Sequence record: SRR2962707_1601
Reading direction: 5' to 3' (one strand)
DNA: 39,147 nucleotides
A program made the position numbers and the translations under genes. The notes beneath the pieces were generated by a model, which was not told the origin of the DNA, made no database searches, and saw only the letters and a program-made list of their open reading frames with translations. This document shows, in pieces, positions 1 through 18,241 of this stretch. The number at the start of each line of letters is the position of its first letter. The stretch's first letter is position 1.

Positions 1-1
1 A

Positions 2-1018
2 GATGGCGAGTTCTTTATGCTGCTGGGGCCATCAGGCTGTGGAAAAACCACCACGTTGCGGATGATGGCCGGGCTTGATCTGCCGACGTCTGGGCAAATC
101 TTTATCGATGGCGAAGAAGTCGGGCAAAAGCCTGCCAGCCAACGCGATATTGCCTTTGTTTTTCAGATGTTTGCGCTCTATCCGCATATGAATGTCGGTA
201 AGAACATCAGCTATCCCTTGCTTAGCCAAGGCATGCCGCGCGCTCAGGTCAAAAAGAAAGTGGCCGAGGTTGCCGAGATTTTGGGGATCCAAGACATCCT
301 CAAGCGCCCGGTTGGCGGCCTGTCTGGGGGCGATCGTCAAAGGGTCGCGCTGGGGCGCGCCATCGTCCGGGAACCCAAGGCCTTCTTCATGGATGAGCCT
401 TTGGGCGCTTTGGATGCTGAGTTTCGGGAACACATGTCCGAAGAACTACGCGCTCTGCATGATCGTATGGGAGCGACCACGGTCTATGTTACTCACGATC
501 AATTGGAAGCCATGCAAATGGGGGACAAGATCGTCGTCATGAACCATGGTTCGGTTGAACAATTCGGTGTTCCACAAGAGATCTATGACTGGCCCGCCAG
601 CAAATTTGTGGCTCAGTTCATCGGTTCACCGCCAATGAATTTCCTGGATTTTCACGGGATGGTCGGCACCGGGCGACCGCAGGTCACAATGTCAGACATA
701 GAGCTGACAGTGCCGACCCCGCTTCAGGGCTGCAATGGTGAGCTGACGTTTGGCATTCGCCCCGAGCATGTTCGCTTAGATGACAACGCACCTTACCGGG
801 GCCGCGTCATTGCCACCGAATACCTGGGAACAACCCAGATCGTCAGCCTGGACACCCCAAACGGCGTGTTGAAATCGCGGATCGCCAGCCACGAAAAGAT
901 CAATGTTGGCGATACGACCGGGCTCAATTTTGATCCGCGCACTGTCACGATTTTTGATGCGCAATCGGGCAAGGCCCTGCTGTCAGAAGCCAACCAAGGA
1001 GTATTGAACAATGGCTGA
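2..1018 (+). CDS. Sugar/polyol ABC transporter ATP-binding protein (MalK/CUT1 family), 5'-truncated by window edge
   Basis: Frame open from position 2 (DGEFFMLL). Walker A GPSGCGKT, signature LSGGDRQR, Walker B FFMDEP, YVTHDQ, C-terminal GIRPEH regulatory/TOBE-like region. Confidence 0.93.
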   Translation, partial: DGEFFMLLGPSGCGKTTTLRMMAGLDLPTSGQIFIDGEEVGQKPASQRDIAFVFQMFALYPHMNVGKNISYPLLSQGMPRAQVKKKVAEVAEILGIQDILKRPVGGLSGGDRQRVALGRAIVREPKAFFMDEPLGALDAEFREHMSEELRALHDRMGATTVYVTHDQLEAMQMGDKIVVMNHGSVEQFGVPQEIYDWPASKFVAQFIGSPPMNFLDFHGMVGTGRPQVTMSDIELTVPTPLQGCNGELTFGIRPEHVRLDDNAPYRGRVIATEYLGTTQIVSLDTPNGVLKSRIASHEKINVGDTTGLNFDPRTVTIFDAQSGKALLSEANQGVLNNG

Positions 1019-2006
1019 AGTCAATCTGTCCGGCGTTTCCAAATCCTTTGGATCAGATGTCGCCCTGGACGATGTCTCTATGACGGTCCCTGACGGGTCT
1101 TTTGTTGTTCTGCTTGGCCCGACCGGGGCAGGAAAAACAACGACCTTACGGCTGGTGTCTGGGTTGGACTCGCCCGATACGGGCGAAGTAAGCATCGGCG
1201 GCCATTCAATGGCCGGTCTCACCCCCGCACATCGAGATGTCGCAATGGTGTTTCAGCAATACTCGCTTTACCCGCACTTAACGGTCCGTCAAAACCTTGA
1301 ATTTCCTCTGAAATCGCCGCTTTTGAAGACGCCAAAAGCCGAGATTGACCGTAAAGTAGGGGAAGTTGCCGAAGTTCTTCAGATTTCGCATAAACTGGAC
1401 AACAAGGCCACCGCCCTCTCCGGTGGCGAAATGCAACGCGTGTCGATTGGGCGCGCGCTAGTGCGCAACCCCTCTGTCTATTTGATGGACGAACCGCTCA
1501 GCTCGCTTGATGCAAAGCTGCGTTCTGATCTTCGCATCGAATTAAAAAGCATTCAGGCCAATTCAGGGGCCACGATGCTCTATGTCACGCATGATCAGAT
1601 CGAAGCCATGACCATGGCCACCCATGTCGGGGTTCTCGACAATGGGCGATTGGTTCAATTCGGTTCACCCAGAGAGATCTACGAAAATCCTGTGAGCATC
1701 TATGCCGCAAGCCGCCTTGGGCAGCCCAAAATCAACATTCTCCCGGCGGACATTTTTAATGGTGCGCCCGGACATGCCAAGAAAATTGGTCTGCGACCGG
1801 AACAGATCGCCCAAGGCGAAGGGGAAGATAGTTTCGTTCAGCGTGTTGAGCATCTTGGCGATCAGACACGCTTGCATCTGACCTTCAAGGACCATGACCT
1901 GATTACTGTTACCGATGCCCATACCGACCTCAAAAACGGAGATATCGTCAAAATCCGCCCCAACAACCCATTCTATTTCGACGCCGATGGCGCGCGGATC
2001 GCATAA
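1011..2006 (+). CDS. Second sugar/polyol ABC transporter ATP-binding protein (MalK family)
   Basis: GPTGAGKT, LSGGEMQR, YLMDEP, YVTHDQ; overlaps upstream ATPase by 8 bp. Confidence 0.93.
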   Translation: MAEVNLSGVSKSFGSDVALDDVSMTVPDGSFVVLLGPTGAGKTTTLRLVSGLDSPDTGEVSIGGHSMAGLTPAHRDVAMVFQQYSLYPHLTVRQNLEFPLKSPLLKTPKAEIDRKVGEVAEVLQISHKLDNKATALSGGEMQRVSIGRALVRNPSVYLMDEPLSSLDAKLRSDLRIELKSIQANSGATMLYVTHDQIEAMTMATHVGVLDNGRLVQFGSPREIYENPVSIYAASRLGQPKINILPADIFNGAPGHAKKIGLRPEQIAQGEGEDSFVQRVEHLGDQTRLHLTFKDHDLITVTDAHTDLKNGDIVKIRPNNPFYFDADGARIA

Positions 2007-2017
2007 AGGAAGACAAA

Positions 2018-3637
2018 ATGGCTCAATTCATCAATCAAAAAGAAGACATAGTCACCGAAGCGATTGACGGTGTGATCCAAACCTCTGGCGGTGCTTTGGC
2101 CAGACTGGATGGATACCCGCATATCCGCACTGTGGTGCGCAACGATTGGGACAAGTCCAAGGTGGCCTTGGTGTCGGGGGGCGGATCGGGACACGAACCG
2201 GCTCATGCGGGTTTTGTTGGCAAAGGAATGTTAACCGCCGCCGTTTGCGGAGATGTCTTTGCCTCCCCCTCGGTCGACGCGGTGCTGGCCGGCATTCTGG
2301 CGGTGACCGGCTCAGAGGGCTGCTTGTTAATCGTCAAAAACTACACGGGCGACCGTCTGAACTTTGGTCTGGCCGCTGAGCGCGCGCGGGCCTTCGGGTT
2401 AAAGGTTAATATGGTCATTGTAGATGACGATATTGCTCTGCCGGATCTGCCCCAACCCCGCGGCGTTGCTGGAACGTTGTTTGTTCATAAAATCGCTGGC
2501 GCTTTGGCGGAATCCGGCGCGTCGCTGGAGGACATCACCAAGGCGGCTGAACGTGTTGTCGCGGGGACAAGATCACTGGGCATGTCGCTGGACACCTGCA
2601 CCGTACCCGGCTCCCCAAAGGAAAATCGCATCGCTGTCGGCAAAGCAGAACTTGGCCTTGGTATCCACGGAGAGGCCGGGGTCGAACAATTTGACTATCG
2701 CGATGCAAAGCAGGCCGTGGCCACCGTGGTGGAAAAGCTGGCTCCGTTGATGGATGACCAGCCCCATGTCGTCTTGCTTAACAATTTGGGCGGTGCGTCT
2801 GTTCTGGAAATGTCGATCCTTGCGCATGAGCTTGTGACGTCCTCCATCGCGGATAACCTAAGTATGATCGTCGGACCGGGAGCCTTGATGACCTCGTTGG
2901 ACATGCGTGGCTTCTCAGTTTCGATCTATCCGGCCAGCGCGGCAGAAACCAAGCTGCTGTCAAAACCCTGCGCGCCTGCTGCATGGCCTGGCTGTATCAA
3001 GATTGAACCGGTGACCGTTTTGGAATTACCGGACGGGTTAACGCCAATTCAACCTATCCCGTCAGAGCACGCAGAAACCGCTGCTTTCCTAACGAAATGT
3101 TGCGAGATCTTGATGGCCGCCGAGGAGGATCTGAACGCACTGGACGCAAAATCAGGCGACGGCGATACGGGGTCGACTTTGGCCGGGGCCGCCCGGGCAT
3201 TGATCCGATCTTTGGACCGCATGCCCTTGGCGGATCACACGCAACTTTTCCGTGCCATTGGGCAAGAGCTTAGCCAAACCATGGGCGGATCGTCCGGGGT
3301 TCTTTTGGCGATCTTCTTTGCGGCTGCGGGCGACGCCGCCTCCAGCGGTTTGCCCATGGTCCAGGCGTTGAAGGAAGGGCTGAACCGCATGCAGCATATC
3401 GGAGGGGCCGAAGTCGGAGACCGCACAATGGTCGACGCATTAAAGCCTGCGCTTGAGGCGCTTGAAGATGGTATCTCCGCCGCGGCAACCGCTGCACGCG
3501 CCGGTGCGCTGCACACATCGACAATTACCCAAGCCAAGGCAGGACGTGCCACCTATATCAATGCCGAACAGCTTTTGGGCCATAACGACCCCGGCGCCGA
3601 AGCCGTCGCCCGATTGTTTGAGCAATTGGACGCCTGA
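2018..3637 (+). CDS. Fused DAK1-DAK2 (DhaK-DhaL) dihydroxyacetone/short ketose kinase
   Basis: SGGGSGHEPAH, KNYTGDRLNF, PRGVAGT, LGIHGE in the K domain; GDGDTG, GGSSG, GDRTMVD, GRATY, DPGA in the L domain; RBS AAGGAAG. Confidence 0.92.
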   Translation: MAQFINQKEDIVTEAIDGVIQTSGGALARLDGYPHIRTVVRNDWDKSKVALVSGGGSGHEPAHAGFVGKGMLTAAVCGDVFASPSVDAVLAGILAVTGSEGCLLIVKNYTGDRLNFGLAAERARAFGLKVNMVIVDDDIALPDLPQPRGVAGTLFVHKIAGALAESGASLEDITKAAERVVAGTRSLGMSLDTCTVPGSPKENRIAVGKAELGLGIHGEAGVEQFDYRDAKQAVATVVEKLAPLMDDQPHVVLLNNLGGASVLEMSILAHELVTSSIADNLSMIVGPGALMTSLDMRGFSVSIYPASAAETKLLSKPCAPAAWPGCIKIEPVTVLELPDGLTPIQPIPSEHAETAAFLTKCCEILMAAEEDLNALDAKSGDGDTGSTLAGAARALIRSLDRMPLADHTQLFRAIGQELSQTMGGSSGVLLAIFFAAAGDAASSGLPMVQALKEGLNRMQHIGGAEVGDRTMVDALKPALEALEDGISAAATAARAGALHTSTITQAKAGRATYINAEQLLGHNDPGAEAVARLFEQLDA

Positions 3638-3701: not shown

Positions 3702-4715
3702 TTAGCGTGTGCCGCTCATCATCATACGATAGCGCAGCTGGTCAAAGATCACCGCAAGGATCAGCAAAGCGCCCAACAGAACCATTTGCATGTAGGAACT
3801 CACCTGCGCCAGGTTCATGCCGTTTTGCACCAGCACAATAAAGAATGCCCCCAACACAACGTTTTCAACCCGCCCAATGCCACCACGCAAAGACACGCCT
3901 GCGATGACACAGGCCGCGATAGATTCCAAAGCAATGGACGCACCAAGGTTGGCTTCTCCAGATTCGACGCGCGCCGTCAAAAGCAATCCCGTGAGCGAGG
4001 CAATCAACGCGCAGATCATATAAGACAGCATCAACGTCCGCTTGGTGTTAATCGCCGAGAGATGCGCCGCTTTGATGTTGCCGCCAACGGCATATACCTG
4101 TGTCCCAAGCCGGGTCCGCGACATAAAGATCCACATCACAAGAATACAGACCAAAGCCACAAGGACCGGCACCGGTATTCCCCATAATCGGCCAAACCCA
4201 AACATGTCTGCAAAGGCAAACGGCAAGCCGCTGACCGGCACGCCCCCTGTAAAGAACAACGCCAGCCCTGCGCCAACCGACGAGACGCCCAAGGTCATGA
4301 TGAACGGCGATACTTCGAAATAGGCGACGCCGACACCATTCACAAATCCGATTAACAAGGCCGCGCCGATCCCCATCAAAGCACCCAACAGAATCGCCAA
4401 CCAAATGGCATCTGGCAGAATGCCTGCCATCCAAACCATCCCCATGGCCGAGACAACAGACGTTAGCGCGATGGCTGTGCCGACCGACAAATCAAACCCG
4501 CCGGATATCAGAACCAGCATTTGCCCCAGTGAGACAAGCACCAGATACACCGATTGCCGTGCCACATTCATGATGTTCTGGCCGGTAAGAAATTTCGATG
4601 ACATGGCCGTAAAAACGACCAATGCAATTGCCAGAAAGAACGGCAGCACACCCACGCGGATAAAAATCCGGGTGATCAAGCCATAGCCAGAATTGGCCTT
4701 AGTCTCGGTGGTCAT
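3702..4715 (-). CDS. ABC transporter permease, RbsC/CUT2 family
   Basis: Hydrophobic; GGFDLSVG, PFIMTLG, YAVGGNIKAAHLS, ESIAACVIAGVSLRGG; ATGA overlap with the ATPase stop. Confidence 0.92.
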   Translation of the reverse strand: MTTETKANSGYGLITRIFIRVGVLPFFLAIALVVFTAMSSKFLTGQNIMNVARQSVYLVLVSLGQMLVLISGGFDLSVGTAIALTSVVSAMGMVWMAGILPDAIWLAILLGALMGIGAALLIGFVNGVGVAYFEVSPFIMTLGVSSVGAGLALFFTGGVPVSGLPFAFADMFGFGRLWGIPVPVLVALVCILVMWIFMSRTRLGTQVYAVGGNIKAAHLSAINTKRTLMLSYMICALIASLTGLLLTARVESGEANLGASIALESIAACVIAGVSLRGGIGRVENVVLGAFFIVLVQNGMNLAQVSSYMQMVLLGALLILAVIFDQLRYRMMMSGTR

Positions 4716-6220
4716 AACGAGGCTCCAGTTTCGTCAAAGAAGTGAGTGAGGACCAAATCTTCGGTCATATCAGCGCCGCTCAGCTCTGCGGTTATCCGGC
4801 CATGGGCCAGCACCAGCAGTCTGTGCGACAAATTCAATACCTCGGGCAGGTCAGAAGAAATCAGCACCACGGCTTTGCCCGCTTCGGCGAGTTCCTTGAT
4901 CAGCAGGTACAACGCCGCTCGTGTGCCCATATCGACACCCACAGTCGGCTCATCAAAGATATAGATGTCGATGTCCTGACCGAACGCTTTGCCAAACAGC
5001 ACCTTTTGCTGATTGCCCCCAGAAAGTTGGGACACCAGTTTGGTCCTGTAACCATCTGACAATTCGACCTTGTCAGAGATGACATCCGTCTTTGCCCGAA
5101 TTGCGGTTTTATTCACAAAGCCGCGCAGCTTTTCGTCCAAGCGCGCCATCATCGGGTTTACAGCAAGGTTTTCGTTGGCCGTTTTTGCCAGATCCAGACC
5201 TTCGTGTTTGCGATCAGATGACAGGTAATAGACGCCTGCGCGAATGATCTCTCTTGTTTCTGCCCAGGTAATGTCACGTGTGCCCAGCATCACCTGACCG
5301 CCGCGCCTGGGCGCAACCCCCATCAAGCTACGGAACAGGCGGGATTTCCCGGACCCGACCAACCCGGCAACTCCCAGCACTTCTCCCGCCTTAATCTCAA
5401 AGCTACAGGGTGCTACGCCTTGTGTTTTCAGCTCGGTCGCTGTGAGAACAACTTCGCCACTGCCACGAGTGATCTTAGGATAGATTTCCGAGATTGCACG
5501 GCCTGTCATCATCTCGACCAAGGCAGCGTCGTCGGTTTCATCCATCGCGACCGTACCAATTTTAGCCCCATCGCGCAAAACCGTGACCCGATCGGCAATC
5601 CGTGTGAATTCCTGCATCCGGTGGGAAATATAAATGACCCCAACCCCGCGGGCCTTTAGCCCGTCGATGAAGCCAAAAAGATGATCCACTTCTTTGTCCG
5701 TCAAAGAGGCCGTCGGTTCATCGAGGATCAGGACCGACAAATCGCCTTGAAACGCCTTGGTAATCTCGACCATCTGCTGTTGAGCGCGCGAGAGCGAGGC
5801 CGTCATCGCATTGGGATCAATGTCAAAGCCCAGATCCGCCAGCATTTTGCGCGACCTTGCTTTCATCGCTCTGTGGTCAATAAAGGGGCCGACTTTCGGC
5901 TCCCATCCTAGGAAAATATTCTGCGCCACCGTCAGGGTCGGGATCAAAGAAAACTCTTGGAAGACCGTGTATATCCCGCATTTTTGCGCGTCGGCCACAT
6001 TGCCAAATTCAACTCTGGTTGTGCCCACATGCAGATCCCCAGACGTGGGGGTATTTGCGCCTGACAGAATGGAAATAAGGGTAGATTTACCCGCACCATT
6101 TTCACCAAACAAAACATGGACTTCGCCCGGCTGAAGATCGAAATCGACCGCATCCAGCGCCAGGACACCGGGGTATTGTTTCGACAAACCTTCTGCGACT
6201 ATCAGGGGAATTTGGGTCAT
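4712..6220 (-). CDS. ABC transporter ATP-binding protein with two NBDs, RbsA/CUT2 family
   Basis: GENGAGKS, ILDEPT, YISH in the N-half; GLVGSGKS, LSGGNQQK, FDEPTVGVD, ISSDLPE in the C-half. Confidence 0.93.
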   Translation of the reverse strand: MTQIPLIVAEGLSKQYPGVLALDAVDFDLQPGEVHVLFGENGAGKSTLISILSGANTPTSGDLHVGTTRVEFGNVADAQKCGIYTVFQEFSLIPTLTVAQNIFLGWEPKVGPFIDHRAMKARSRKMLADLGFDIDPNAMTASLSRAQQQMVEITKAFQGDLSVLILDEPTASLTDKEVDHLFGFIDGLKARGVGVIYISHRMQEFTRIADRVTVLRDGAKIGTVAMDETDDAALVEMMTGRAISEIYPKITRGSGEVVLTATELKTQGVAPCSFEIKAGEVLGVAGLVGSGKSRLFRSLMGVAPRRGGQVMLGTRDITWAETREIIRAGVYYLSSDRKHEGLDLAKTANENLAVNPMMARLDEKLRGFVNKTAIRAKTDVISDKVELSDGYRTKLVSQLSGGNQQKVLFGKAFGQDIDIYIFDEPTVGVDMGTRAALYLLIKELAEAGKAVVLISSDLPEVLNLSHRLLVLAHGRITAELSGADMTEDLVLTHFFDETGASL

Positions 6221-6235
6221 GGGGGCTCCTTGAAA

Positions 6236-6265
6236 TGGGCCGGGTCTGTTGCAAAACCCGGCCCA
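6236..6265 (-). other. Intercistronic RNA stem-loop after the binding-protein gene (mRNA stabiliser or partial terminator)
   Basis: Perfect 10-bp stem TGGGCCGGGT-CTGTTGCAAA-ACCCGGCCCA between the SBP stop and the ATPase start. Confidence 0.65.
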
Positions 6266-6278
6266 AATTTCTGATGGT

Positions 6279-7352
6279 TTAGTTTACAGAAAACACAGGA
6301 GAATAACCCACGGGCGGCAGGATATCACCGCGCGCGACCTCAGAGATGTTGGACGGATCGACCACAAAGATCTTTGGCCCAACATGCTTTACATAGTCTT
6401 TGCCTTCCAAGATCCGCACCGCTTGGTCAATCGCGATACGGCCTTGGATCACCATCGAGTCCGCAGGAGCCGCCAGGATAAAGCCACGCTGAATGCCGGT
6501 ATAAACACCGGGCGTCATATAGAAGGCCAAAAGGTCCACTTTGCCTTTCAACCCGCGTTCCCGGATCAGACCCTGAGCGGCCTCTGCCGTGACCGCTGTA
6601 CCAGCCAGATACCGAACGTCTGGGTTGGCCTGCAGCACATCTTCAACCAGTTTCAACTGAGTTTCTTTGCCGGTGTCCCCAAAGCGTGGCTCAAGAACTT
6701 CGACGGCCGATCCTGCGACCGCTTCGATAAAGCCGGCATGCGCGGCTTCAACCCATCCGGCCCCTGCTGGACCTGGGAACCAACCCACTTGAACCGGTTC
6801 GCTGCCTGCGGGGTGTTTTTCGGCCAGATACCGGCCTGTTTCGGCGCCCATGGTCTTGAACGAAACCAACGATTTGGCCGCGATGTCACTTGAAGAAACC
6901 CCGTTGATGACGTCGATCACCGGAAGGCCTTTACCGGCGACTTCACCGATCACGTTGTTCAGGCCTTCATAGGAAATCGCACCCAGAACAACCGCATCAG
7001 CACCGCTGGACACACAGTCTTCGATCTGTGTGATTTGTTTGGCCAGTTCTGTGTAACCGCCCGCTTCGACCAAATTCATGCTGACGCCAAGGCGTTCGGC
7101 CTCATCAGCGACACCATAGTCAACCCCCAGCCAATAGGCGTCTTTCATATGGGGGAAAGAGACACAGATGTTCCACGCTTTCGAAGCTTTCTCTAGCGGC
7201 GTGTAGACTACGTCGCTCACCATACCGTCGGCCGAAAATGCCGGCGAAACTTCTTCTGCATCATAGGGATACCAGGCGTCTTGGGCAAAGGCAGATGCAG
7301 GGATTGCAGTCGCCAAAGCAAGGCAAGTCATTGTATTCAGGACGAGTTTCAT
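6279..7352 (-). CDS. TorT-like periplasmic substrate-binding protein (PBP type I)
   Basis: Signal peptide MKLVLNTMTCLALATAIPASAFA; WNICVSFPHMKDAYW, EAGGY, QIEDC, PGPAGAG, AGTAVTAEAA and FYMT recall TorT. Start placed at ATG 7352 with GGAGG RBS. Confidence 0.85.
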   Translation of the reverse strand: MKLVLNTMTCLALATAIPASAFAQDAWYPYDAEEVSPAFSADGMVSDVVYTPLEKASKAWNICVSFPHMKDAYWLGVDYGVADEAERLGVSMNLVEAGGYTELAKQITQIEDCVSSGADAVVLGAISYEGLNNVIGEVAGKGLPVIDVINGVSSSDIAAKSLVSFKTMGAETGRYLAEKHPAGSEPVQVGWFPGPAGAGWVEAAHAGFIEAVAGSAVEVLEPRFGDTGKETQLKLVEDVLQANPDVRYLAGTAVTAEAAQGLIRERGLKGKVDLLAFYMTPGVYTGIQRGFILAAPADSMVIQGRIAIDQAVRILEGKDYVKHVGPKIFVVDPSNISEVARGDILPPVGYSPVFSVN

Positions 7353-7413
7353 TATTCTGACCTCCATGTCAGTTACAAATTCACGGATTTTCCGCATTGA
7401 AAGCGAGTGGCCC

Positions 7414-8388
7414 TTAGCCGAGCTCTTCTCTTATTTTTTGGAGTAAGGTTTTCCGGTCAGCCCGCGCCTCAAGCGCTTGCGCCATATCAACCTTGACGAA
7501 TTTCACCGGCGTGTTCGGTTGCAATTGCCCGATCAGATCCATGTCCGCTGAAATGATTGCTCCTAGGGTAAAGTACCCGCCGCCGGAAACAGCATCCCGA
7601 TGCAAAACAATCGGTTCTGTCCCGCCCGGCACTTGAATCGAGCCATAGGAGTAGCAGCCATCCACAATGTTGGAGGGATCCGCGCCTGCGCCAAACGGTT
7701 GCTCTCGGTCCACAAACTCAAGCGCCCGCCCGCCTTTGAAGCGATAGCCCATGCGATCCGCCTCAGGAGCGACGCTCCACATGTCCTCAAAGAAGCCGCC
7801 TTGGGCTGCTTCTGTCAGACGGTTCCAATACAGGCCTGGCAACACCCGCAATTCCGCCGGAGAGCCCGGTCCGCGACGCAACGCGGTGGGCACGCTGCGC
7901 CCTGCGGTGGAAAGATCAGCTGTTGCTCCTGTCGGCACGACATCCCCTGCTTGAATGGGACGGCCTTCGATACCGCCCAGCGCACCAATGGGATAGGTCG
8001 ACCGACTGCCCAAGTCCGCGGGTGTTGTCACGCCGCCGGAGACAGCGATGTAAATCCGTGCCCCGGTTTTCAGAAAACCAAAGCTCAGCACCTGACCCGC
8101 TTTTGCCGCAAAGGATGTCCAGCCTTCTTTCGCCTCGCCATCCAGCGTCATTGGCATTTCAGCGCCCGTCACCGCGACAACGCAGTCTTCGGTGAATTCC
8201 ACCTCCGGTCCCATGAACACAGCCTCGAGACCCGCGGCGTCTTCAGGGTTTCCGACAAGCATATTGGCAGCCCGCAACGCAAAACGATCCATCGCGCCGC
8301 TGATTGGAATACCAAGGTGAAAATATCCGGGGCGTCCAAGATCCTGGACAGAGGTTGAAAGGCCCGGTTTGACAATCTTAAGAGCCAT
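7414..8388 (-). CDS. Biotin-dependent carboxyltransferase-family protein (PxpC / allophanate hydrolase subunit 2 / KipA-like)
   Basis: TSVQDLGRPG, SGAMD, ANMLVGN, GSRSTY, DRMGYRF, GSIQVP, SGGGY. Confidence 0.88.
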   Translation of the reverse strand: MALKIVKPGLSTSVQDLGRPGYFHLGIPISGAMDRFALRAANMLVGNPEDAAGLEAVFMGPEVEFTEDCVVAVTGAEMPMTLDGEAKEGWTSFAAKAGQVLSFGFLKTGARIYIAVSGGVTTPADLGSRSTYPIGALGGIEGRPIQAGDVVPTGATADLSTAGRSVPTALRRGPGSPAELRVLPGLYWNRLTEAAQGGFFEDMWSVAPEADRMGYRFKGGRALEFVDREQPFGAGADPSNIVDGCYSYGSIQVPGGTEPIVLHRDAVSGGGYFTLGAIISADMDLIGQLQPNTPVKFVKVDMAQALEARADRKTLLQKIREELG

Positions 8389-9253
8389 TGAGTGCCTCCA
8401 TCAATTTCGCATTGGTTCCGGCCATATCGGCGTTGAAGTCTTCCAGATCAAAGTCGACTTCGGCGATACGGGGCGTATAGGCTCCCGCTTCAACCGCTTC
8501 GACGATCCGATCATATTCTGCACGATCAATCGGCTTCCATTTCACAATGTCACCGGGGCGGAAAAAGACCATGAAGTCTTTGAGGTAACTTGTCTTTTGC
8601 TCCGGGTCATAGATCGGCATCGGGGTTATCCCAAACATCTGGTAGCCGCCTGCTCCGCGCACCGAATAGATGCAGGAAAAGCAACCACCATAGCCGACCG
8701 TCAGTTTTGGCGTGTCCGTCCGGGGGCGCAGATATTTGGGCACTTCAAGCTGTTTTTCACGCTCGACCAGTTGGTACAGAAACGGCAACCCCGCCACGAA
8801 ACCCACCATCGACACAAACCATGGCTGGGAGTGATGCGCCTCGATAAAGGCCTCGACGCTGTCATACCCGTTGATCCGGGCCGCATATTCCAGATCAGTC
8901 CCGCTTGGGTCTTGGTGACGTTCCCGAAACCGCATCAGCGTTTCCTCGGTCCACGGATCTTGATAGTATACCGGGATCTCGATGATACGGGTCGCAAGGC
9001 GTTTTTCCGCACTCTCCGCCTTATGCTCAAGCTCTTGCACGCGGCGAAGCATTTCGTCAGGCGCTGTAACATCAGGATCGAACTTGACCTGAAAGGACGC
9101 ATTGGCCGGGCAAATCTCGGTAACGCCGGGAATATTGGCCTCCCGCACTGCGTTGCTCATGGACAAGGACTTAAAGAAGGCGTCTAGCGACATCTCTTCG
9201 TCCATCTCAACGTAGATATGTTCGTCACCGCCAAATGTGTAACGTGTCTTCAC
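8378..9253 (-). CDS. Carboxyltransferase-domain protein (PxpB / allophanate hydrolase subunit 1 / KipI-like), long form
   Basis: IEIPVYY, MVGFVAGLPFL, PKYLRPRTDTP, GYGGCFSCIYS, GGYQMFG, FRPGDIVKW. GTG start at 9253 with AAGGAGG RBS, overlapping the carboxylase stop. Confidence 0.87.
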   Translation of the reverse strand: MKTRYTFGGDEHIYVEMDEEMSLDAFFKSLSMSNAVREANIPGVTEICPANASFQVKFDPDVTAPDEMLRRVQELEHKAESAEKRLATRIIEIPVYYQDPWTEETLMRFRERHQDPSGTDLEYAARINGYDSVEAFIEAHHSQPWFVSMVGFVAGLPFLYQLVEREKQLEVPKYLRPRTDTPKLTVGYGGCFSCIYSVRGAGGYQMFGITPMPIYDPEQKTSYLKDFMVFFRPGDIVKWKPIDRAEYDRIVEAVEAGAYTPRIAEVDFDLEDFNADMAGTNAKLMEALNGS

Positions 9254-10641
9254 GATGTACCTCCTTTTGTCGAAACGGGAGTCAGGTTTCCTGCGGCCAA
9301 CCAAGGTTCAAGCCATTGCGTGTGAAAATCGCCCGCGCGAACGGACGGATCATCGATCAGCGCCAGATGCAGCGGGATTGTGGTTTTCAGTCCCTCCAGT
9401 TTCATGGTTTCCAGCGCCATCTTGAGTTTGTTGATCGCATCCTCGCGATCCACCCCATGGGCAATCACCTTGCCCAACAAGGAGTCGTAGAAAGGCGGTA
9501 TTTGATAGCCCTCATACAGAAAATGATCGACGCGAATGCCATCCCCTTCTGGCAGCGTCATGGCCCCAAGTTTCCCCGGCCACGGCATGAATTGCAGGAA
9601 GGGATCTTCGGCGTTGATACGCACTTCGATCGCGTGGCCGTTGCGCTGGATATCATCCTGGGTAACGCTCAGCGGCGCACCACCGCACACCCGGATCATT
9701 TCTTGCACCAGGTCGATACCAGCAATCATTTCAGTCACCGGATGTTCGACCTGAATGCGCGTGTTCATCTCGATAAAGAAGAACTCATTGCTGGTGGAGT
9801 CATAGAGATATTCCAACGTCCCGGCGCCGCAGTAATTCACCGATTTGGCCAGCGCGACAGCGGAGGCACATAGCGCGTCTCGTGTTGCGTCATCCAAACA
9901 AATGGCCCCGGCTTCTTCCCAAACCTTCTGACGGCGGCGCTGCAACGAACATTCGCGTTCAAAGCAATGTACCGCGTTTGTGCCGTCCCCCAGGATCTGC
10001 ACCTCAATATGGCGCGGCGACAGAACTGCCCGTTCAAGATATAGCCCACCATCGCCAAACGCGGCCTCGGCTTCGGCCTGTGCTTGCGGCGCCAGTTTAC
10101 GCAGTTCCGCCTCATCATCGGCGACCCGAATACCACGCCCGCCGCCACCTGCGGCCGCTTTGATCATCATCGGATAGCCCACAGACTGAGCGATTTCGAC
10201 CGCTTCATCGACGGTTTCGATACGACCCTTGGACCCGGGAACAACCGGAACACCCGCGGCCTTTGCCGCCTGGCGTGCCGCAACCTTGTCGCCCATGCGG
10301 TCTATGGTGTCGGCCGTAGGGCCGATGAAGCAAACGCCTGCCTGTTCCACGAGCCGGGCAAACTCGGCATTTTCCGACAAGAATCCGTATCCGGGATGAA
10401 CAGCATCCGCGCTGGTCTCTTTAATTGCAGCCATCACTTTTGGAACGTTCAGATAGCTGTCTTTCGATTGCGCGCCCCCAATACACACGGATTCATCAGC
10501 CAGCTTTACGGCCAGCATATCACTATCCCCTTCAGAGTAGGCCTGGATCGTCGTAATCCCCAGGCCCTTCGCGGCGCGAATGATCCGCACGGCGATTTCG
10601 CCCCGGTTCGCGATGAAAAGGCGTTTCACAGCCATGGTCAC
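9250..10641 (-). CDS. Biotin carboxylase (AccC-like ATP-grasp)
   Basis: ANRGEIA, HPGYGFLSEN, KAAAGGGGRG, RECSLQRRRQK, EMNTRIQVEH, RINAEDP, YDSLLGK. Confidence 0.93.
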   Translation of the reverse strand: MTMAVKRLFIANRGEIAVRIIRAAKGLGITTIQAYSEGDSDMLAVKLADESVCIGGAQSKDSYLNVPKVMAAIKETSADAVHPGYGFLSENAEFARLVEQAGVCFIGPTADTIDRMGDKVAARQAAKAAGVPVVPGSKGRIETVDEAVEIAQSVGYPMMIKAAAGGGGRGIRVADDEAELRKLAPQAQAEAEAAFGDGGLYLERAVLSPRHIEVQILGDGTNAVHCFERECSLQRRRQKVWEEAGAICLDDATRDALCASAVALAKSVNYCGAGTLEYLYDSTSNEFFFIEMNTRIQVEHPVTEMIAGIDLVQEMIRVCGGAPLSVTQDDIQRNGHAIEVRINAEDPFLQFMPWPGKLGAMTLPEGDGIRVDHFLYEGYQIPPFYDSLLGKVIAHGVDREDAINKLKMALETMKLEGLKTTIPLHLALIDDPSVRAGDFHTQWLEPWLAAGNLTPVSTKGGTS

Positions 10642-10877
10642 GTGTCCAATTCTGCCAAAACGTCACCCGCCATGATCGGCGCGGCATCTTTTGCGACATA
10701 GTCAAGAAAAGTACCGGCCACCTCGGATTTGACTTCGATAAAGGTCTTCATCACCTCAACCAGACCAATGGTGTCACCCACCGCGACGGCATCTCCCTTG
10801 GCTTTGAACGGCGCGTCATCTGGCGAAGGCTTTTGATAAAACACGCCTGGTAGAGGGGATTGAATTGAATCGGCCAT
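10638..10877 (-). CDS. Stand-alone biotin carboxyl carrier protein (79 aa)
   Basis: SPLPGVFY...GD...EVMKT biotinylation motif; no N-terminal linker domain. Confidence 0.9.
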   Translation of the reverse strand: MADSIQSPLPGVFYQKPSPDDAPFKAKGDAVAVGDTIGLVEVMKTFIEVKSEVAGTFLDYVAKDAAPIMAGDVLAELDT

Positions 10878-10892
10878 GTGGTTTCCCTTTTT

Positions 10893-11678
10893 TCACTTAC
10901 TGGTGTGTTCAAGAACGGTTGCGGCGGGGGCAACTGCGATTCCCGCATCGCTCAACCCGCTTCGAATTGCCTTGCCGATAGACAAGGCACCCGGCGTATC
11001 AGAATGAAAACAGATGGATTCAAATCCGATTTCAATTTCTGTACCTTCGACGGTTGTTACCATGCCGGTGGTGCAGGCTTTGACGCATTTGGCCGCGATT
11101 GCCTCCGGGTCCGGACGCACGACCTGACGTTTGAAGACAATGGAGCCACTGTCGTCATAGTCGCGGTCCGCATAAAACTCTCGCACAACCGGGTAGCTTC
11201 GCCGCTTCGCGATTTCATAGGTTTTGGAGGCCTCCATACAAAACAGGAGGGTGCCACCGGTCGTTTGTATCAGCGTGTCGATCAGCCGTTGAGACAGTTC
11301 TTCATTTACCGCCGCTTCCATATACAAAGCGCCATGAGGTTTGATGTGCTGCAATGGAATGCCATGACGCCGACCGAATTCTCTGATCGCCCCGACCTGA
11401 TAAACAATGTCATTCACCAGCTCTTCAGAATTGGTTTTGATGTAGCGGCGACCAAACCCCTGCAAATCTCGGTAACCGGGATGCGCGCCCAAACCAACCC
11501 CATGGGTCTGAGCAAGCTTGATCACCCGGTTCATGGAATTGGGATCCCCGGCATGGAAACCTGCGGCGATATTGGCCGAGCTGATCAAGGCCATGATCTC
11601 TTCATCTGGCGCATCGCCCAGAACCCATTGGCCAAAGCCTTCGCCCATATCACAGTTCAAATCGACAACTTCGCGCAT
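10893..11678 (-). CDS. LamB/YcsF family protein (PxpA-like)
   Basis: [61 protein letters not shown]. Start placed at ATG 11678 (MREVVDLN). Confidence 0.92.
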
Positions 11679-11754
11679 GCTTTGTGGTCCCCAATCAAAG
11701 TTGCCAAATGATTGAGCCGAAGCACACTTTATGTAAAATACAAAATTCTTTAGA

Positions 11755-11905
11755 CGCATTATCGATTTTTTAGATACAAAAAATTATTCACATCCTGCCC
11801 AAAATACCGACATTCATGCGATTTTTCCGGTTCAATTTAGGCATAACGCTTTAAATATCTGATTTTTTAATGATATAAAAAATAACATCGAAAAATCAGA
11901 GGTCA
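11755..11905. promoter_or_regulatory. AT-rich divergent promoter region with candidate LysR boxes
   Basis: ATCGATTTTTTAGAT (11761-11775) and ATCGAAAAATCAGAG (11887-11901) fit ATC-N9-GA(T), which contains T-N11-A. Perfect inverted repeat TCTGATTTTT (11858-11867) / AAAAATCAGA (11891-11900). Confidence 0.6.
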
Positions 11906-11909
11906 AAAA

Positions 11910-12821
11910 ATGAACTTCCGACATCTCAAGTTTTTCGTGGCAACCGCGGAATCAGGTCAGGTCAGCCGCGCGGCGTCCCAGCTCTCGATTTCGCAATCCG
12001 CCGTGACCAGCGCAGTCAAGGAACTTGAAGCCGAACTTGGCGCCCAGCTGTTTTTGCGCTCTGCACATGGGATGGAGCTCACCGAAGCCGGACGCGATTT
12101 TCTGGCCTCGTCGCGCGACATTCTGGAAAAGCTCGAACAGGCCAAGCGGATCGCTCAACGGAATTCTCCCGCCAAAGGCGTCATTTCCCTCGCTGCAACC
12201 TATACCGTGATCGGGTATTTTCTGCCCTATCACCTGGATCGTCTTGGCCATCTCTTTCCCAATCTTGAGATCCGGATCAGTGAATTGAACCGCGAAAGCA
12301 TCGAAGAGGGTTTGATGACTGACCGATTTGACCTCGCCATGGTCCTGACGTCGAACCTGACCAATCCAGAACTGCAGACCGAGACCCTCCTGAAATCGAC
12401 CCGGCGTTTATGGGCGGCCAACAGTCACAAATTCATTCGCCAAGGCCGCGCGACCTTTGAGGAAATTGCCGAGGAAGACTATATCATGCTGACTGTAGAT
12501 GAGGCCGCCAATACAACGATGCGATATTGGGGGCTCAACACCCATCAACCAAAAGTCAAAATCCGCACCTCCAGCGTCGAAGCCGTGCGCTCCATGGTGG
12601 CAAACGGCCAGGGCGTTACGGTTTTGTCAGACATGGTCTACCGCCCTTGGTCACTCGAAGGGAAAAGGATCGGGACCGTCCCGACCGATCAGGAAATCCC
12701 GACGATGGATGTTGGACTCGCCTGGCGCAAAGGGATTACTTTCTCGCAACCTGTGGCCTCCGTGGCAGACTACTTCCGCCAGGTCTTCCTGTCGCCCCAA
12801 TCACACGAGCCTCGAGGCTAG
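11910..12821 (+). CDS. LysR family transcriptional regulator
   Basis: N-terminal HTH (FVATAESGQVSRAASQLSISQSAVTSAVKELEAELG..LF.R), 303 aa, divergent from the catabolic operon. Confidence 0.95.
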   Translation: MNFRHLKFFVATAESGQVSRAASQLSISQSAVTSAVKELEAELGAQLFLRSAHGMELTEAGRDFLASSRDILEKLEQAKRIAQRNSPAKGVISLAATYTVIGYFLPYHLDRLGHLFPNLEIRISELNRESIEEGLMTDRFDLAMVLTSNLTNPELQTETLLKSTRRLWAANSHKFIRQGRATFEEIAEEDYIMLTVDEAANTTMRYWGLNTHQPKVKIRTSSVEAVRSMVANGQGVTVLSDMVYRPWSLEGKRIGTVPTDQEIPTMDVGLAWRKGITFSQPVASVADYFRQVFLSPQSHEPRG

Positions 12822-12899: not shown

Positions 12900-14111
12900 C
12901 TAACCGGGATTGCGCTCAATCAATCGTGCGCCATCCGTCACATCGTCACTCGGGTGCGTGATGACCCGGTCGCCTTCTGTTAGCCCCTCCAGCACTTGGC
13001 CCAATCCGGAGCTGCGATGCCCAATCACGACCTCTTGGCGACGCGCCAAGCCATCGACGTCCAAATAGACCGACCAGATATCGCCCTGGCGAAACAGCGC
13101 ACTCAAAGGGACTCGCAGCGCATCCGGCGTTTCCCATTCTATGATCCTTAGGTAGACAGCGAACCCGTCGCCCAACCCCGCCCGGTCCTTGACGGGAGAG
13201 GTCAGATCAAAAATCGCATCGACTCGCTGCTCTTCGATCCCCAGAGCTGACATTTTTGTCCGCGCCGCGGGTTCGACCCGTGCCAATTTCGCCGCAAGCG
13301 GGCTGCCCCCTCCCCAGCGTTCGACGACTGCCGAGGCCCCAACGTCCAGACGCACTGCATCGCTCGACAGCAAATCTCCGACCAACTCAAGCTCCGCAGG
13401 GTCCCCAATCGACAGCAACGGCATTCCGGCCGTGACGGGCCGCTCACTGATCACGGGCACTGACAGCACCACCCCATCTGCCGGGGCGATCAGTTGAACG
13501 CAGCAATTCAGGTCGACCGGCTGGTTGGCTTCGGGCTCGATCAGCGCCGCCTTGACCCGGGTTAATGTACCCTGCGCAAGGTCGATGCGCGCCCGGGCGG
13601 CATCTGTCGCCGCAGTTGCAATGGCTGCGGCCTGACGGGCATCGTCAAGCTGCGTCGAAGACGCCACACCGCGATCTGCAAGAGTTTTTACTCGGGCAAG
13701 CTGCGTCTGCGCGAAAGACTGATCTTCCAGTGCCTTTCGCAAATCGGTCTCCGCCACGCTCACCGAAGCCTCGGCCTCTTTTACCGCAGCTTCGGCCTGA
13801 GAGCGGGACCGGCTGTCCAGCAAGCTGGGGGCAATGGGTTCAACAATTGCGACAACCGTTTCGCCCGCCGTGACCCTGTCCCCAACAGAGACCGGAGAGC
13901 GCAGCGCCGTTCCAGTAATTGGGCTCGCCACATCATAGATTTCCTTGATCTGTGTGCGGCCATCCGCATCAATCGTGATCTGCAAAGGCCCACGATCCAC
14001 AGTATAGAGATCAACTGGCACGGGGTCCGGCCGAAAACTGACAAAGAGCAGAGTTGCCACAAGCGTCAAACCAAGAGCGACAAGAACGACAGTTCGGGTT
14101 TTCAGATGCAT
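12900..14111 (-). CDS. Periplasmic adaptor / membrane fusion protein (HlyD/MacA family)
   Basis: N-terminal TM anchor, lipoyl half-motifs (VASPITG..VGDRV; LIAPADGVV), coiled-coil hairpin, SALGIEEQRV, EGLTEGDRVI. Confidence 0.9.
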   Translation of the reverse strand: MHLKTRTVVLVALGLTLVATLLFVSFRPDPVPVDLYTVDRGPLQITIDADGRTQIKEIYDVASPITGTALRSPVSVGDRVTAGETVVAIVEPIAPSLLDSRSRSQAEAAVKEAEASVSVAETDLRKALEDQSFAQTQLARVKTLADRGVASSTQLDDARQAAAIATAATDAARARIDLAQGTLTRVKAALIEPEANQPVDLNCCVQLIAPADGVVLSVPVISERPVTAGMPLLSIGDPAELELVGDLLSSDAVRLDVGASAVVERWGGGSPLAAKLARVEPAARTKMSALGIEEQRVDAIFDLTSPVKDRAGLGDGFAVYLRIIEWETPDALRVPLSALFRQGDIWSVYLDVDGLARRQEVVIGHRSSGLGQVLEGLTEGDRVITHPSDDVTDGARLIERNPG

Positions 14112-14115
14112 AAGC

Positions 14116-16488
14116 TCATTCCCTTGTTTTCATGACCGCAATCAGATCAAGCCTATCCAAGCGCCGCCGAACAATCAGAACCGACGCCAATGCAGCAGCA
14201 AGGACGACCAGACTGGACAGCGCGAAAATAGACGGCTTGAGAACGAGCGGTATTGTATACAGATCACTGGAAAACCCTTGCGCCATGGCGCTTGATATCC
14301 ACGCGCCCAGCAGCCAGCCTACAGGTTGGGCCAACAAGGCCAACAACAGGCTTTCCCCGATAAAGATGAACGAGACCTCCCCGCTGGAGAACCCCAGGAT
14401 GCGAAGACTCGCCAGTTCGCGGGCCCGTTCAGACAGCAGGATACGCGCCCCATTATAGGCCACGCCGACGGTGATCAGCACGGCTATGGTGATGTAAATG
14501 GTATTCGTAATGACAACGTTTTCCCGAATAGTATCGTGAAAGGCTCTGCGGGTGTCATTCATCATGATGGTCCCGGCGAGTTTTGGAATATCCTTGATCG
14601 CCGTCTGAAATGCAGAATCCTCGGAAGCGTCGATTGAAATGTTGGCCACCGAAATCCGCGGGGCCTGTCGGAACAATTGATTGGCATATGCCAAGTCCAT
14701 ATAGGCACCAATGCCAAAATATTGCGTCACCGTCCCCGAGACCGTCAGATCAAATGCCTCACGCCGACCGGTCAAAAACGCGACTTCGATCAGATCGCCC
14801 GCCTGAACCTGTAACAGCTGCGCCAAACGGTCAGACACCAAAATCCCACCGGGTGGCACGTTCAGCGCGCGCCCTTTGTCATTCACGACCCGGCTCAGGT
14901 CTGCATCGGGCGTTCGCGCCTCAATCGACACTGTCTTTGAGAGCGCACCGTTTTTCAGGACGGCAGCATGATATTGTTGGCCCTCGGCCTGAAGCACCCC
15001 TGGCAAACGCCGCACCTCTGCCAGAGCAGAGACAGGGACGTCTTGCGAAAAGAGGAGTGTGGCGTCCTGTCGATTGGATTGGTTAAACGCCGAATCCACG
15101 ATGCTATCCAGCGCATCATTCAGAAAGAATGCGGCCACTATCGAAGCCACTGCGAAAGCGAGCCCGAGAGTGGTCAACGCACTTCGCAACGGCCAACGGA
15201 AGACGCTGCGCAAGATCATCGTGACGCTTTGGGACAAATGCAAAGCCGTCAGGCCAATATCCACGATGGACCGTTTAAATCGAGGCGGCGCAGGAGGCTG
15301 CATGGCAATTGCAGGAGCAAGCGCCGCTGCCGCAAGTGCACTGCGGGCCGCCCCCAAGGTTGTCGCAAAGAGCGCCGCCAAACCCGACATGGCGAAAACC
15401 CAATAGGACATTTGAAACAACAAATACGGAAAGTTAAAGAACTGAGCATATTGCCCAGCAACCGCCAGAGCCAGCCAAAGACCGGCGGCCCATCCAATAA
15501 AAATACCGCACAGCGCCACCAGCCCTGCAAGCATCAAGTAATGAAGGCAGATTTCCAGATCGGAATAGCCGATGGCTTTGAGCAGCCCAATCTCGCTCCG
15601 TTCCAGCGCCACAATGCGGCCCATCACCATGCTGACAAGGAAGGCCGATATTCCAAAGAATATCGGTGGCAAAATCAGGGACATACCGCGCAGTTGGGTG
15701 ATTTCAGCATCGACAAAGGCGTCCGATCCGTGACGGCTCCGGTCAAAAGCCCCTAGTCCGCCATAGGGCTCAAGCAATCGATCCAATTGGTCAATCACTT
15801 CTTCGGACCGGGTGTTGGGCGACAATTTCAACGAAACATCGTTAAAGGCCCCAGTCATGTCAAAAACCGCCGCAGCCGCGCGTTTTGGCATCCAGATGAT
15901 GCCATAACCTTCGTTGTCAGGCATCAATGCGCCCGGCCCGATTGTATAGATGAATTCGGGCGACAAGACGGTGCCCGAAATCCGGAGTGCCCGCTTTTGT
16001 CCGTTAAGGTTTGCAAAGAACACGTCGCCGGGCCAAAGACCATTGGCCTGAGCAAAAGGCTCATTAACCAGAACATCCGTGCTCGACATCGGATCAGGCC
16101 AATCCCCGCTGCGCAAGACCGGTACATTTAACTGAGGCAGCCCATTGGCAGGTAAGGACAAAATTTTACCCACACCCGAGGCATCCCGTCCGGGTATATC
16201 CAGTATGGCATTCGCCGATGTCCGGGCCTCAACGGCATAAACTCCGGGAATGGCCATTATTTCAGATAGCAGACGTTCCGGCGCCCGTATCATCGATGCA
16301 AAAACATCGGCAAAGCGGTTGCGCTCATAATAGGTGTTCCGGGTCTCGTTCAGGGCCCGATACATGCCAAAGGACATCACCAGAATCGCGACCCCGCAGG
16401 CCAGAACCAGCGAAATCGCTAAGGCCTGTGCCCAAAGACGCTTGAAGTCGCGGAGCAACTTTTTATCCAGCGTGTGCATATTCACCAC
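14116..16488 (-). CDS. FtsX/MacB-like ABC permease with two repeated modules
   Basis: [14 protein letters not shown] and [15 protein letters not shown] motifs, two large periplasmic domains. Start may be ATG 16479. Confidence 0.9.
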
Positions 16489-17189: not shown

Positions 17190-17359
17190 CGCAGGCCCCC
17201 TTTCGCTCAGTAAATCAATCGAGGCCTTGGGTGTCTTTGATCTAACTCAGGTCGAGCGCGCGAGAAATTCTCGGAAATCTTGATGCCAGAAATTAGTAGT
17301 ATGCTTTCTGACATGTTACAGGTAGCATCAGAAACAACATGATTCTTGTGAGAGACAAA

Positions 17360-18238: not shown

Positions 18239-18241
18239 GAA

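Follow-up and report, generated by a model that had tools for sequence, protein, structure and literature searches.

In Aspergillus nidulans, LamA is a single urea-carboxylase-like chain whose substrate is 2-pyrrolidinone. The lamA and lamB genes of this fungus are presented, in the accessible part of the source, as lactam catabolism genes that are under the control of AmdR and are co-regulated with gatA and gabA of omega-amino acid metabolism (PMC8016842). For the bacterium Pseudomonas putida KT2440, the accessible part of a preprint describes the regulator PP_2919 and an enzyme of three subunits, PP_2920-2, that is needed for the use of butyrolactam (2-pyrrolidinone) as a nitrogen source, according to fitness data, an in-frame deletion and plasmid complementation (bioRxiv 10.1101/2021.12.09.472016). 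Here, we analyze an operon at positions 3702-12821 of a 39,147 nt stretch from the sequence record SRR2962707_1601 (this whole stretch is called the window below), in which genes for a PxpA/LamB-family hydrolase and two carboxyltransferase (CT) subunits, CT_C_D (PxpB-like) and CT_A_B (PxpC-like), are combined with genes for a biotin carboxylase (BC), a biotin carboxyl carrier protein (BCCP) and an ATP-binding cassette (ABC) importer. The comparisons described below place the CT subunits with urea carboxylase and give about an even chance to the view that the operon encodes an inducible system for the uptake and ring opening of a small gamma-lactam, most likely 2-pyrrolidinone, to gamma-aminobutyrate (GABA) via carboxybiotin.

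Genes were called from open reading frames (ORFs) and from profile searches against Pfam and NCBIfam, and 33 ORFs of the window were scanned. All nine genes were found where an earlier note on this DNA, made from the sequence letters, had placed them: the hydrolase, BCCP, BC, CT_C_D, CT_A_B, a TorT-like periplasmic substrate-binding protein (SBP), an ABC ATPase and a permease follow one another on the minus strand with four overlapping junctions, and a LysR-family gene is divergent. However, the same note called the system uncharacterised, which was too strong: PP_2920-2, with the same layout as the Pseudomonas loci of the window's clade, has been tied to butyrolactam by the genetic data mentioned above, as far as the accessible part of the preprint goes.

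Comparison with described systems

The PxpABC 5-oxoprolinase (YbgJ/YbgK/YbgL of E. coli; PDB 5dud) has three protein families in common with the window, and among PDB sequences, CT_A_B matches YbgK best (1e-46); the difference is that the window places BCCP and BC between pxpA and the CT genes. Urea carboxylase and urea amidolyase (PDB 3va7, 5i8i; TIGR02712) share the BC, CT A-B, CT C-D and BCCP modules with the window and are the nearest large group in both CT trees, with bacterial urea carboxylases showing 38-42% identity to the window's system. However, urea carboxylase is one chain, whereas the window encodes four proteins in the order BCCP, BC, CT_C_D, CT_A_B. Furthermore, the window has a LamB/PxpA hydrolase in the place of the amidase-type allophanate hydrolase of urea amidolyase; in agreement with the earlier note, no such amidase (PF01425) was found among the 33 ORFs scanned. 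The likeness to fungal lamA/lamB lies in the LamB-family hydrolase of the window, PF03746 being named after LamB, and the fungal link between lactam and GABA genes is paralleled by the 4-aminobutyrate transaminase (gabT) and succinate-semialdehyde dehydrogenase (SSADH) genes that neighbor some of the bacterial loci.

PP_2920-2 resembles the window in its divergent regulator and its PxpA-, PxpB- and PxpC-like genes, and Pseudomonas operons with this arrangement, whose CT pair is sister to that of the window, show 49-68% identity to the window and belong to a common hydrolase clade (support 99). In contrast to the window with its BCCP, BC and ABC importer, PP_2920-2 is described, in the part of the preprint that is accessible, as three subunits without biotin proteins or an importer. 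The mycobacterial MSMEG_0435-0436, a PxpC/PxpB-like pair, has been seen by cryo-electron microscopy gripping the biotin of the AccA3 BCCP (PDB 9yx5; accessible part of PMC13012033) and sets a precedent for such a pair taking biotin from a carrier encoded by another gene. However, this pair is distant in sequence (7e-31 for CT_A_B, 3e-14 for CT_C_D), and its authors suggest a regulatory role.

In P. aeruginosa, PA0492-PA0496 are annotated, in the accessible part of PMC5521831, in the order conserved hypothetical, biotin-requiring enzyme, acyl-CoA carboxylase subunit, hypothetical. This order matches the five-gene core of the window (hydrolase, BCCP, BC and the two CT subunits), but without an importer; the literature found by gene name states no function for these genes in its accessible parts. 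One locus of our set (L114) has the arrangement LysR, PxpA-BCCP-BC-CT-CT, with CT subunits 65% identical to those of the window and a hydrolase that belongs to a second PxpA clade (43% identity). The SBP, finally, shares its fold and sequence family with TorT (PDB 3o1h) and with PDB 4yhs, but TorT partners a sensor kinase. By the defining tests, the system is outside the urea carboxylase, PxpABC, acetyl-CoA carboxylase and TorT-sensor families, and it would work like urea amidolyase and fungal lamA/lamB.

The carboxyltransferase subunits group with urea carboxylase

The earlier note had regarded the CT subunits as urea-carboxylase-like and had proposed trees as a check; both trees bear out this assignment. 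In a careful maximum-likelihood tree of CT_A_B with 48 rows (supports given as ultrafast bootstrap (UFBoot)/Shimodaira-Hasegawa-like approximate likelihood ratio test (SH-aLRT)), the window clade and the Pseudomonas clade (100/99) join the CT domains of urea carboxylase at 100/97, the Pseudomonas group being the sister of the window's CT clade (97/86). On the opposite side of the split are E. coli PxpC, the plain PxpC of the relatives and fused PxpB-PxpC forms. The CT_C_D tree shows the same split between urea carboxylase and PxpB with an SH-aLRT support of 99. We put more weight on the CT_A_B tree because the CT_C_D tree was a quick one with a simpler model and long branches, and is more prone to long-branch artefacts. 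Pseudomonas is represented in the CT trees by three rows with BCCP and BC (L181, L188, L199) and by only two without (L113, L115).

The profile scores point in the same direction. CT_C_D misses the PxpB equivalog model TIGR00370 (79 vs 145.55 bits), CT_A_B misses the PxpC equivalog model NF045499 (219.6 vs 500 bits), and the identities to E. coli are 27% for CT_C_D with PxpB and 36% for CT_A_B with PxpC, within a range of 27-36% for PxpB/C/A. CT_A_B and CT_C_D align to positions 448-768 and 800-1082, respectively, of the urea carboxylase model TIGR02712; CT_C_D has a C-terminal extension of about 50 residues that matches urea carboxylase up to model position 1082. The scores with this model are 519 bits for BC, 221 for CT_A_B, 116 for CT_C_D and 17 for BCCP, all far under the cut-off of 1303.85.

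A second CT_A_B gene is present in four of the five relatives' genomes searched, and there it sits in a plain pxpB-pxpC-pxpA set without BC and BCCP (two genomes by Pfam, two by tblastn). Since, in addition, the PxpB and PxpC equivalog models are missed, the operon is, on these comparisons, not an ordinary 5-oxoprolinase, and its CT pair groups with urea carboxylase rather than with ordinary PxpB/PxpC, as the earlier note had it. That note had also denied that the operon is an acetyl-CoA carboxylase. This holds as well because the operon lacks an acyl-CoA carboxyltransferase, which was found neither there nor among the 33 ORFs scanned, and because additional BC genes, some of them stand-alone and 455-460 aa long, lie elsewhere in all five relatives' genomes. 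No urea carboxylase scored above its cut-off in these five genomes.

Fused relatives were also found, namely PxpB-BCCP-PxpC chains of 664-736 aa. Separately, CT_A_B is attached to periplasmic-binding-protein domains in a 709-aa metagenome protein (P0004), which probably stems from read-through between adjacent genes rather than from a real fusion.

Conservation of the operon and its gene neighbors

We collected 80 loci by their CT_A_B protein and added the locus on the megaplasmid of Ruegeria sp. TM1040; 70 of these 81 loci extend for at least 4.5 kb on either side of CT_A_B and were evaluable. As these loci are kin, the counts do not represent independent events. Judged by CT_A_B (70-85% identity), the nearest relatives are mostly from the Roseobacter group and other marine Alphaproteobacteria, together with a few metagenome-assembled genomes titled Gammaproteobacteria or Pseudomonadota/Proteobacteria. 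PxpA, BCCP, BC and CT_C_D are found beside CT_A_B in all 70 evaluable loci, LysR is found beside this core in 61, and all three importer genes are present in 37. The five-gene core thus is a stable unit to which the importer is a frequent attachment, and the gene arrangement goes beyond chance. The CT_C_D type (E <= 1e-30) occurs in 9 of the 401 genomes, including the centre genome, of an evenly drawn sample of Pseudomonadota.

The neighbors of the loci with and without the importer differ. gabT and SSADH genes, often accompanied by a small cupin gene, adjoin 13 of the 37 importer loci vs none of the 33 importer-less loci, and in the TM1040 locus, the neighbors are annotated as 4-aminobutyrate transaminase and succinate-semialdehyde dehydrogenase. 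The gene for the biotin-uptake protein BioY adjoins 11 of the 37 importer loci and none of the others. Near the core of the importer-less loci, genes for hydantoinase/oxoprolinase A were found in 12 of 33 cases.

The importer-less loci (L010, L030, L035-L042, L052-L066 and others) have further recurrent neighbors. In 17 of the 33, a gene for a 411-aa protein without a Pfam match lies 3' of CT_A_B, followed by a GntR gene and then an ABC/SDR/amidase operon; an amidase is encoded in this neighboring GntR/ABC operon of some loci. Hydantoinase A/B and AraC genes often lie upstream, and SAR116-type loci without the importer carry extra isochorismatase-family and old-yellow-enzyme genes.

The hydrolase, the regulator and the probable substrate

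None of the three PxpA equivalog models is passed by the window's PxpA, whose position in the tree (support 99) is among hydrolases from Pseudomonas fluorescens/putida-type operons, apart from canonical PxpA. The sister-clade operon, with LysR next to PxpA-(BCCP-BC)-CT_C_D-CT_A_B, occurs in many named Pseudomonas records, and its proteins are 50-56% (PxpA), 62-68% (CT_C_D), 57-63% (CT_A_B) and 49-52% (LysR) identical to those of the window. Among the P. putida-group loci nearest to P. monteilii, LysR with PxpA-CT-CT and nothing else was found in 31 of 31. Exactly two CT_A_B loci are present in a genome titled P. putida strain 31753: one, with BCCP and BC, falls in this clade, and the other is canonical-like.

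These relationships bear on the substrate because Pseudomonas relatives have been tied to butyrolactam. A reporter with the PP_2920-2 promoter region gave a signal of about 900-fold at 50 µM butyrolactam, and reporter induction was obtained solely by the expected ligand (accessible part of bioRxiv 10.1101/2021.12.09.472016). Together with the gabT and SSADH neighbors, which point to GABA as the product, these relatives indicate that the substrate is probably 2-pyrrolidinone, which would be converted to GABA. The earlier note had left the choice between a lactam, a ureide and an amide; the gamma-lactam part of this proposal fits the neighbors and the Pseudomonas relatives, whereas the carboxylation part is qualified by the 78 of 136 Pseudomonas loci that dispense with a dedicated biotin module (see below).

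The same machinery might, alternatively, act on 5-oxoproline, valerolactam, a substituted pyrrolidinone, a cyclic imide, a hydantoin or a ureide. The window's PxpA does pass the NCBIfam subfamily model named '5-oxoprolinase subunit PxpA', and the hydantoinase/oxoprolinase A genes near the importer-less loci could be understood in this way. In addition, the CT clade of the window is combined with a second PxpA/LamB clade, formed by the hydrolases of the five-gene loci L114, L118, L119, L073, L078 and L080; these two hydrolase clades on one CT clade may represent two substrate specificities. However, four of the five relatives' genomes contain a plain pxpBCA set besides the operon, the gabT/SSADH neighbors point to GABA, and both the hydrolase and the LysR protein of the window group with the Pseudomonas fluorescens/putida type. 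Moreover, the P. putida lactam hydrolases each restored growth solely on their own lactam, according to the accessible part of the preprint (bioRxiv 10.1101/2021.12.09.472016). Hence, we regard a substrate other than 2-pyrrolidinone as unlikely, although deserving of attention.

The biotin module and the proposed reaction

Starting from the observed gene set, its conservation, its kinship with urea carboxylase and its separateness from PxpABC, we infer the substrate and every chemical step of the following scheme. The TorT-like SBP and its ABC partners would import the lactam, and the LysR protein would sense it and switch the operon on. BC would use ATP and bicarbonate to carboxylate the biotin on the 79-aa BCCP, from which CO2 would be transferred to the lactam nitrogen by the CT_C_D/CT_A_B pair, related to the CT of urea carboxylase but split into two proteins. 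This putative N-carboxylation would yield an activated N-carboxy-lactam to be opened by the PxpA/LamB hydrolase, and the resulting N-carboxy-GABA would shed CO2 spontaneously. The net reaction would be lactam + ATP + H2O -> GABA + ADP + Pi. We rank this carboxybiotin route first, at about even chances. It is consistent with the E41-V42-M43-K44 motif of BCCP being invariant in 24 of 24 aligned orthologues, with the fused PxpB-BCCP-PxpC chains and with the grip of the mycobacterial pair on BCCP biotin.

Several findings weigh against this scheme. In the Pseudomonas sister clade, BCCP and BC lie between PxpA and CT_C_D in 58 of 136 distinct loci; the other 78 loci lack them, with PxpA, CT_C_D and CT_A_B intact. 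At least four gains or losses of BCCP and BC are needed on the Pseudomonas CT tree, a number that is forced by the starred branches. The loci with and without the two genes are otherwise close: their CT_A_B proteins are 84-87% identical to each other, and those of the operons L120-L199 and L208-L366, with or without BCCP and BC, are 84-100% identical. In three genomes of the three-gene type, no BC scored above the cut-off of NF009471, whereas two five-gene Pseudomonas genomes contain exactly one such BC, which is encoded in the operon (14 control genomes have none). As judged from these gene contents, dedicated biotin proteins are not required in the Pseudomonas strains that lack them. Furthermore, gabT and SSADH are found neither in the window itself nor beside 24 of the 37 importer loci. 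The link between the window and PP_2920-2 is drawn from the layout and from named relatives, and a literature search on the SBP match 4yhs retrieved no paper.

The prediction of the complex between BCCP and the CT pair is likewise a weak point. In calibration, the mark of the fold test was reached by 51 of 78 solved complexes and by 2 of 108 mismatched pairs; at scores of up to 0.60, however, it was reached by only 5 of the 78 solved complexes and by all four passing mismatches (of 180). BCCP with the CT pair scored 0.55 vs 0.09 for the best of three controls, which is a weak pass only. At least 95% of contacts are common to the runs, and the predicted local distance difference test (pLDDT) value of the partner is at least 88. 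The pass may reflect memory because like complexes have been solved (3va7, 9yx5). The fold test lends weak support to a docking of BCCP on the CT pair.

As the biotin module is missing from 78 of the 136 Pseudomonas loci, it is either supplied in trans or not essential: in these loci, AccB/AccC may feed carboxybiotin in trans, or carboxybiotin may stand outside the core reaction. The latter possibility amounts to a different mechanism, in which the CT-like pair activates the lactam directly by ATP phosphorylation and PxpA opens the ring, with BC and BCCP serving as an optional booster, CO2 supply or regulator. Canonical PxpABC is assumed to use ATP-dependent phosphorylation by PxpB/C (accessible part of PMC13274462), the repeated gain or loss of BCCP and BC with retention of the other three genes is readily explained in this manner, and the deletion of the three-gene system in P. 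putida is complemented by those same genes (accessible part of bioRxiv 10.1101/2021.12.09.472016). However, the complementation is also compatible with supply in trans because P. putida has its own AccB/AccC. In addition, the trees place the CT subunits on the side of urea carboxylase, which genuinely uses carboxybiotin, and away from PxpB/C; all 70 marine loci retain BC and BCCP, and the biotin lysine motif is invariant; and BioY is encoded beside 11 of the 37 importer loci. We consider direct activation by ATP improbable on balance, with carboxybiotin ahead of it.

A third possibility is that the CT-like pair is not an enzyme at all but a BCCP-binding regulator, similar to KipI/KipA or to the mycobacterial pair, holding biotin back from an acyl-CoA carboxylase. 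MSMEG_0435-0436 bind the biotin of BCCP, showed no urea carboxylase activity and have been suggested to be regulatory (accessible part of PMC13012033). However, the pair in the window is co-transcribed with its own BC, BCCP, hydrolase, importer and a LysR gene of the substrate type, and the Pseudomonas relatives show a catabolic phenotype, which makes a regulatory function very unlikely.

The carboxybiotin route can be extended to a joint reading that accounts for the variable biotin module, which we put forward tentatively and hold to be less probable than the route itself. The system would be a biotin-dependent lactamase in which carboxybiotin provides a throw-away activating group; BC and BCCP would be swappable with AccB/AccC, and this interchangeability would explain their repeated loss in Pseudomonas. 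The importer would then single out 2-pyrrolidinone as a neglected form in which nitrogen and carbon are exchanged within marine dissolved organic matter.

The TorT-like importer

The earlier note had described the importer as attached to the enzyme system. It is indeed present in the window and in 37 of the 70 evaluable loci, that is, in only about half of them. In four loci of the second hydrolase type (L078, L080, L118, L119), it lies upstream of the hydrolase gene instead of downstream of CT_A_B.

The SBP matches PDB 4yhs, the Bradyrhizobium sp. BTAi1 protein BBta_2440, with 7e-174 over 331 residues. Its predicted model (pLDDT 82.4) superimposes on 4yhs with a Z score of 46.6 and a root-mean-square deviation (rmsd) of 2.5 over 333 residues, at 77% (VIA-align) or 78% (Foldseek) identity. 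The match to TorT (3o1h) is more distant (4e-51 by sequence; Z 36.3, rmsd 2.0 over 291 residues, 34% identity). Although the SBP passes NF008185 (412 vs 200), it scores 282.3 vs 310 on the TorT model TIGR02955. The automatic name 'TorT' is misleading because the SBP gene is followed by ABC ATPase and permease genes and not by a gene for the TorS kinase. As a guess, a pocket of the size that holds trimethylamine N-oxide (TMAO) would suit a small polar lactam.

If the automatic names were taken at face value, BC and BCCP would be a spare half of an acetyl- or acyl-CoA carboxylase and the TorT-like protein a partner of a TMAO sensor. The NCBIfam names 'acetyl-CoA carboxylase biotin carboxylase subunit', 'acetyl-CoA carboxylase' and 'TorT' all read this way, as do those in the TM1040 record. 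However, no acyl-CoA carboxyltransferase, TorS, TorR, TMAO reductase or other tor gene was found among the 33 ORFs scanned. The genes after the SBP and its failure on TIGR02955 speak against a sensor partner, and the NF009471 cut-off was passed only by the operon's own BC in the two five-gene Pseudomonas genomes and by nothing in the 14 control genomes. This combination is the least probable of the explanations considered, and we would be most surprised if it were correct. The names TorT and acetyl-CoA carboxylase are likely misnamings spread by NF008185, NF009471 and NF005457. In the TM1040 record (L081, 10563-11633), the binding protein is named 'TMAO reductase system periplasmic protein TorT', and BC and BCCP are named acetyl-CoA carboxylase.

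Organization of the locus

The features of the operon and its control region are listed in Table 1.

Table 1. Genes and intergenic region of the operon, with positions in the window and the basis of each assignment
Feature	Position	Strand	Basis
LysR-family regulator	11910-12821	+	PF00126 and PF03466
Divergent intergenic control region, visibly A+T-rich	11679-11909		Sequence inspection
PxpA/LamB-family hydrolase	10893-11678 (ORF to 11759)	-	PF03746, 5e-85; NF003814 subfamily model, 282.6 bits vs cut-off 226
Small BCCP, 79 aa, E-V-M-K motif	10638-10877	-	PF00364; NF005457, 108.6 bits vs cut-off 87
Biotin carboxylase (ATP-grasp)	9250-10641	-	PF00289, PF02786, PF02785; NF009471, 721.8 bits vs cut-off 686
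CT_C_D subunit, PxpB-like, 291 aa	8378-9253 (ORF to 9304)	-	PF02682, 1e-42
CT_A_B subunit, PxpC-like	7414-8388	-	PF02626, 2e-85; TIGR00724, 267 bits vs cut-off 230
TorT-like periplasmic binding protein of a CUT2-type ABC importer	6279-7352 (ORF to 7397)	-	NF008185, 412 bits vs cut-off 200
ABC ATPase, two nucleotide-binding domains	4712-6220	-	PF00005 twice; nearest NCBIfam models sugar-type, none above cut-off
ABC permease (BPD_transp_2)	3702-4715	-	PF02653, 5e-33

Four junctions of the operon overlap, as read from the sequence. The stop codon of BCCP and the start codon of BC overlap in GTGA (10638-10641), as do the stop codon of BC and the start codon of CT_C_D (9250-9253), the latter with AGGAGG 7 nt upstream; the CT_C_D and CT_A_B genes overlap by 11 nt (8378-8388) and the ATPase and permease genes by 4 nt (4712-4715). 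From the alignment with relatives, translation of PxpA probably starts at M28 (11678) and that of the SBP at 7352; for CT_C_D, the alignment and the upstream AGGAGG point to the GTG at 9253 as the probable start, giving 291 aa. A scan for promoters gave six sigma-70-like matches vs a mean of 5.6 in shuffled sequences, and we claim no promoter because this number does not exceed that of the shuffles; a terminator scan gave nothing above the shuffles.

Outside the operon, the window carries genes of the kind ordinarily found on the chromosome of a marine alphaproteobacterium. Beside the LysR gene, at 12900-17189, lies a MacAB-like efflux set, consisting of an HlyD-family adaptor, a 790-aa FtsX/MacB permease and an ABC ATPase, that appears unrelated to the operon. 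A phenylacetate catabolism block at 21831-27717 encodes PaaA/PaaC-family proteins, PaaD, a reductase and a PaaZ-like aldehyde dehydrogenase-MaoC fusion; its first PaaA-family ORF, 401 aa as called, has about 100 extra N-terminal residues. The stretches 1-3637 and 17339-21814 contain two UgpC/MalK-type ABC ATPases, followed by a fused DhaK-DhaL dihydroxyacetone kinase and, further along, a DHDPS-family gene with a GntR regulator and a TRAP transporter.

Relation to published work and implications

The genetics of a three-gene relative are already in print, in the accessible part of the P. putida preprint, and the five-gene core is visible in the annotation of the P. aeruginosa genes described above. 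Literature searches for a biotin-dependent lactamase, for a lactam carboxylase and for PxpA/YcsF together with biotin carboxylase retrieved no paper on such an enzyme, and among the literature found, no paper gives the five-gene core a function or tests its chemistry or biotin dependence. Likewise, a search for pyrrolidinone use in Roseobacter yielded, by titles and the openings of abstracts, no paper on lactam use among the matches. Not in print, as far as the literature found shows, are the biotin-linked form, its proposed chemistry, the detachability of BC and BCCP, and the marine importer.

Proteins annotated as 'allophanate hydrolase subunit 1/2' that are encoded beside BC and a carrier are widespread, and their operons are misnamed as acetyl-CoA carboxylase, TorT and 5-oxoprolinase. 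The operon of the window supplies a concrete guess at the substrate and a clean test of whether carboxybiotin activates a lactam for hydrolysis. If the system is a biotin-dependent lactamase, the trick of urea amidolyase would be extended to lactams, a stable ring amide being made hydrolysable by a LamB/PxpA enzyme. The lactam chemistry, if true, would also bear on the role of the mycobacterial relatives that bind BCCP. 2-Pyrrolidinone is the monomer of nylon-4, and the operon would provide a route for this compound together with a sensor. For the marine bacteria of the Roseobacter group, the substrate proposed here would add one more compound to the list of those that they take up.

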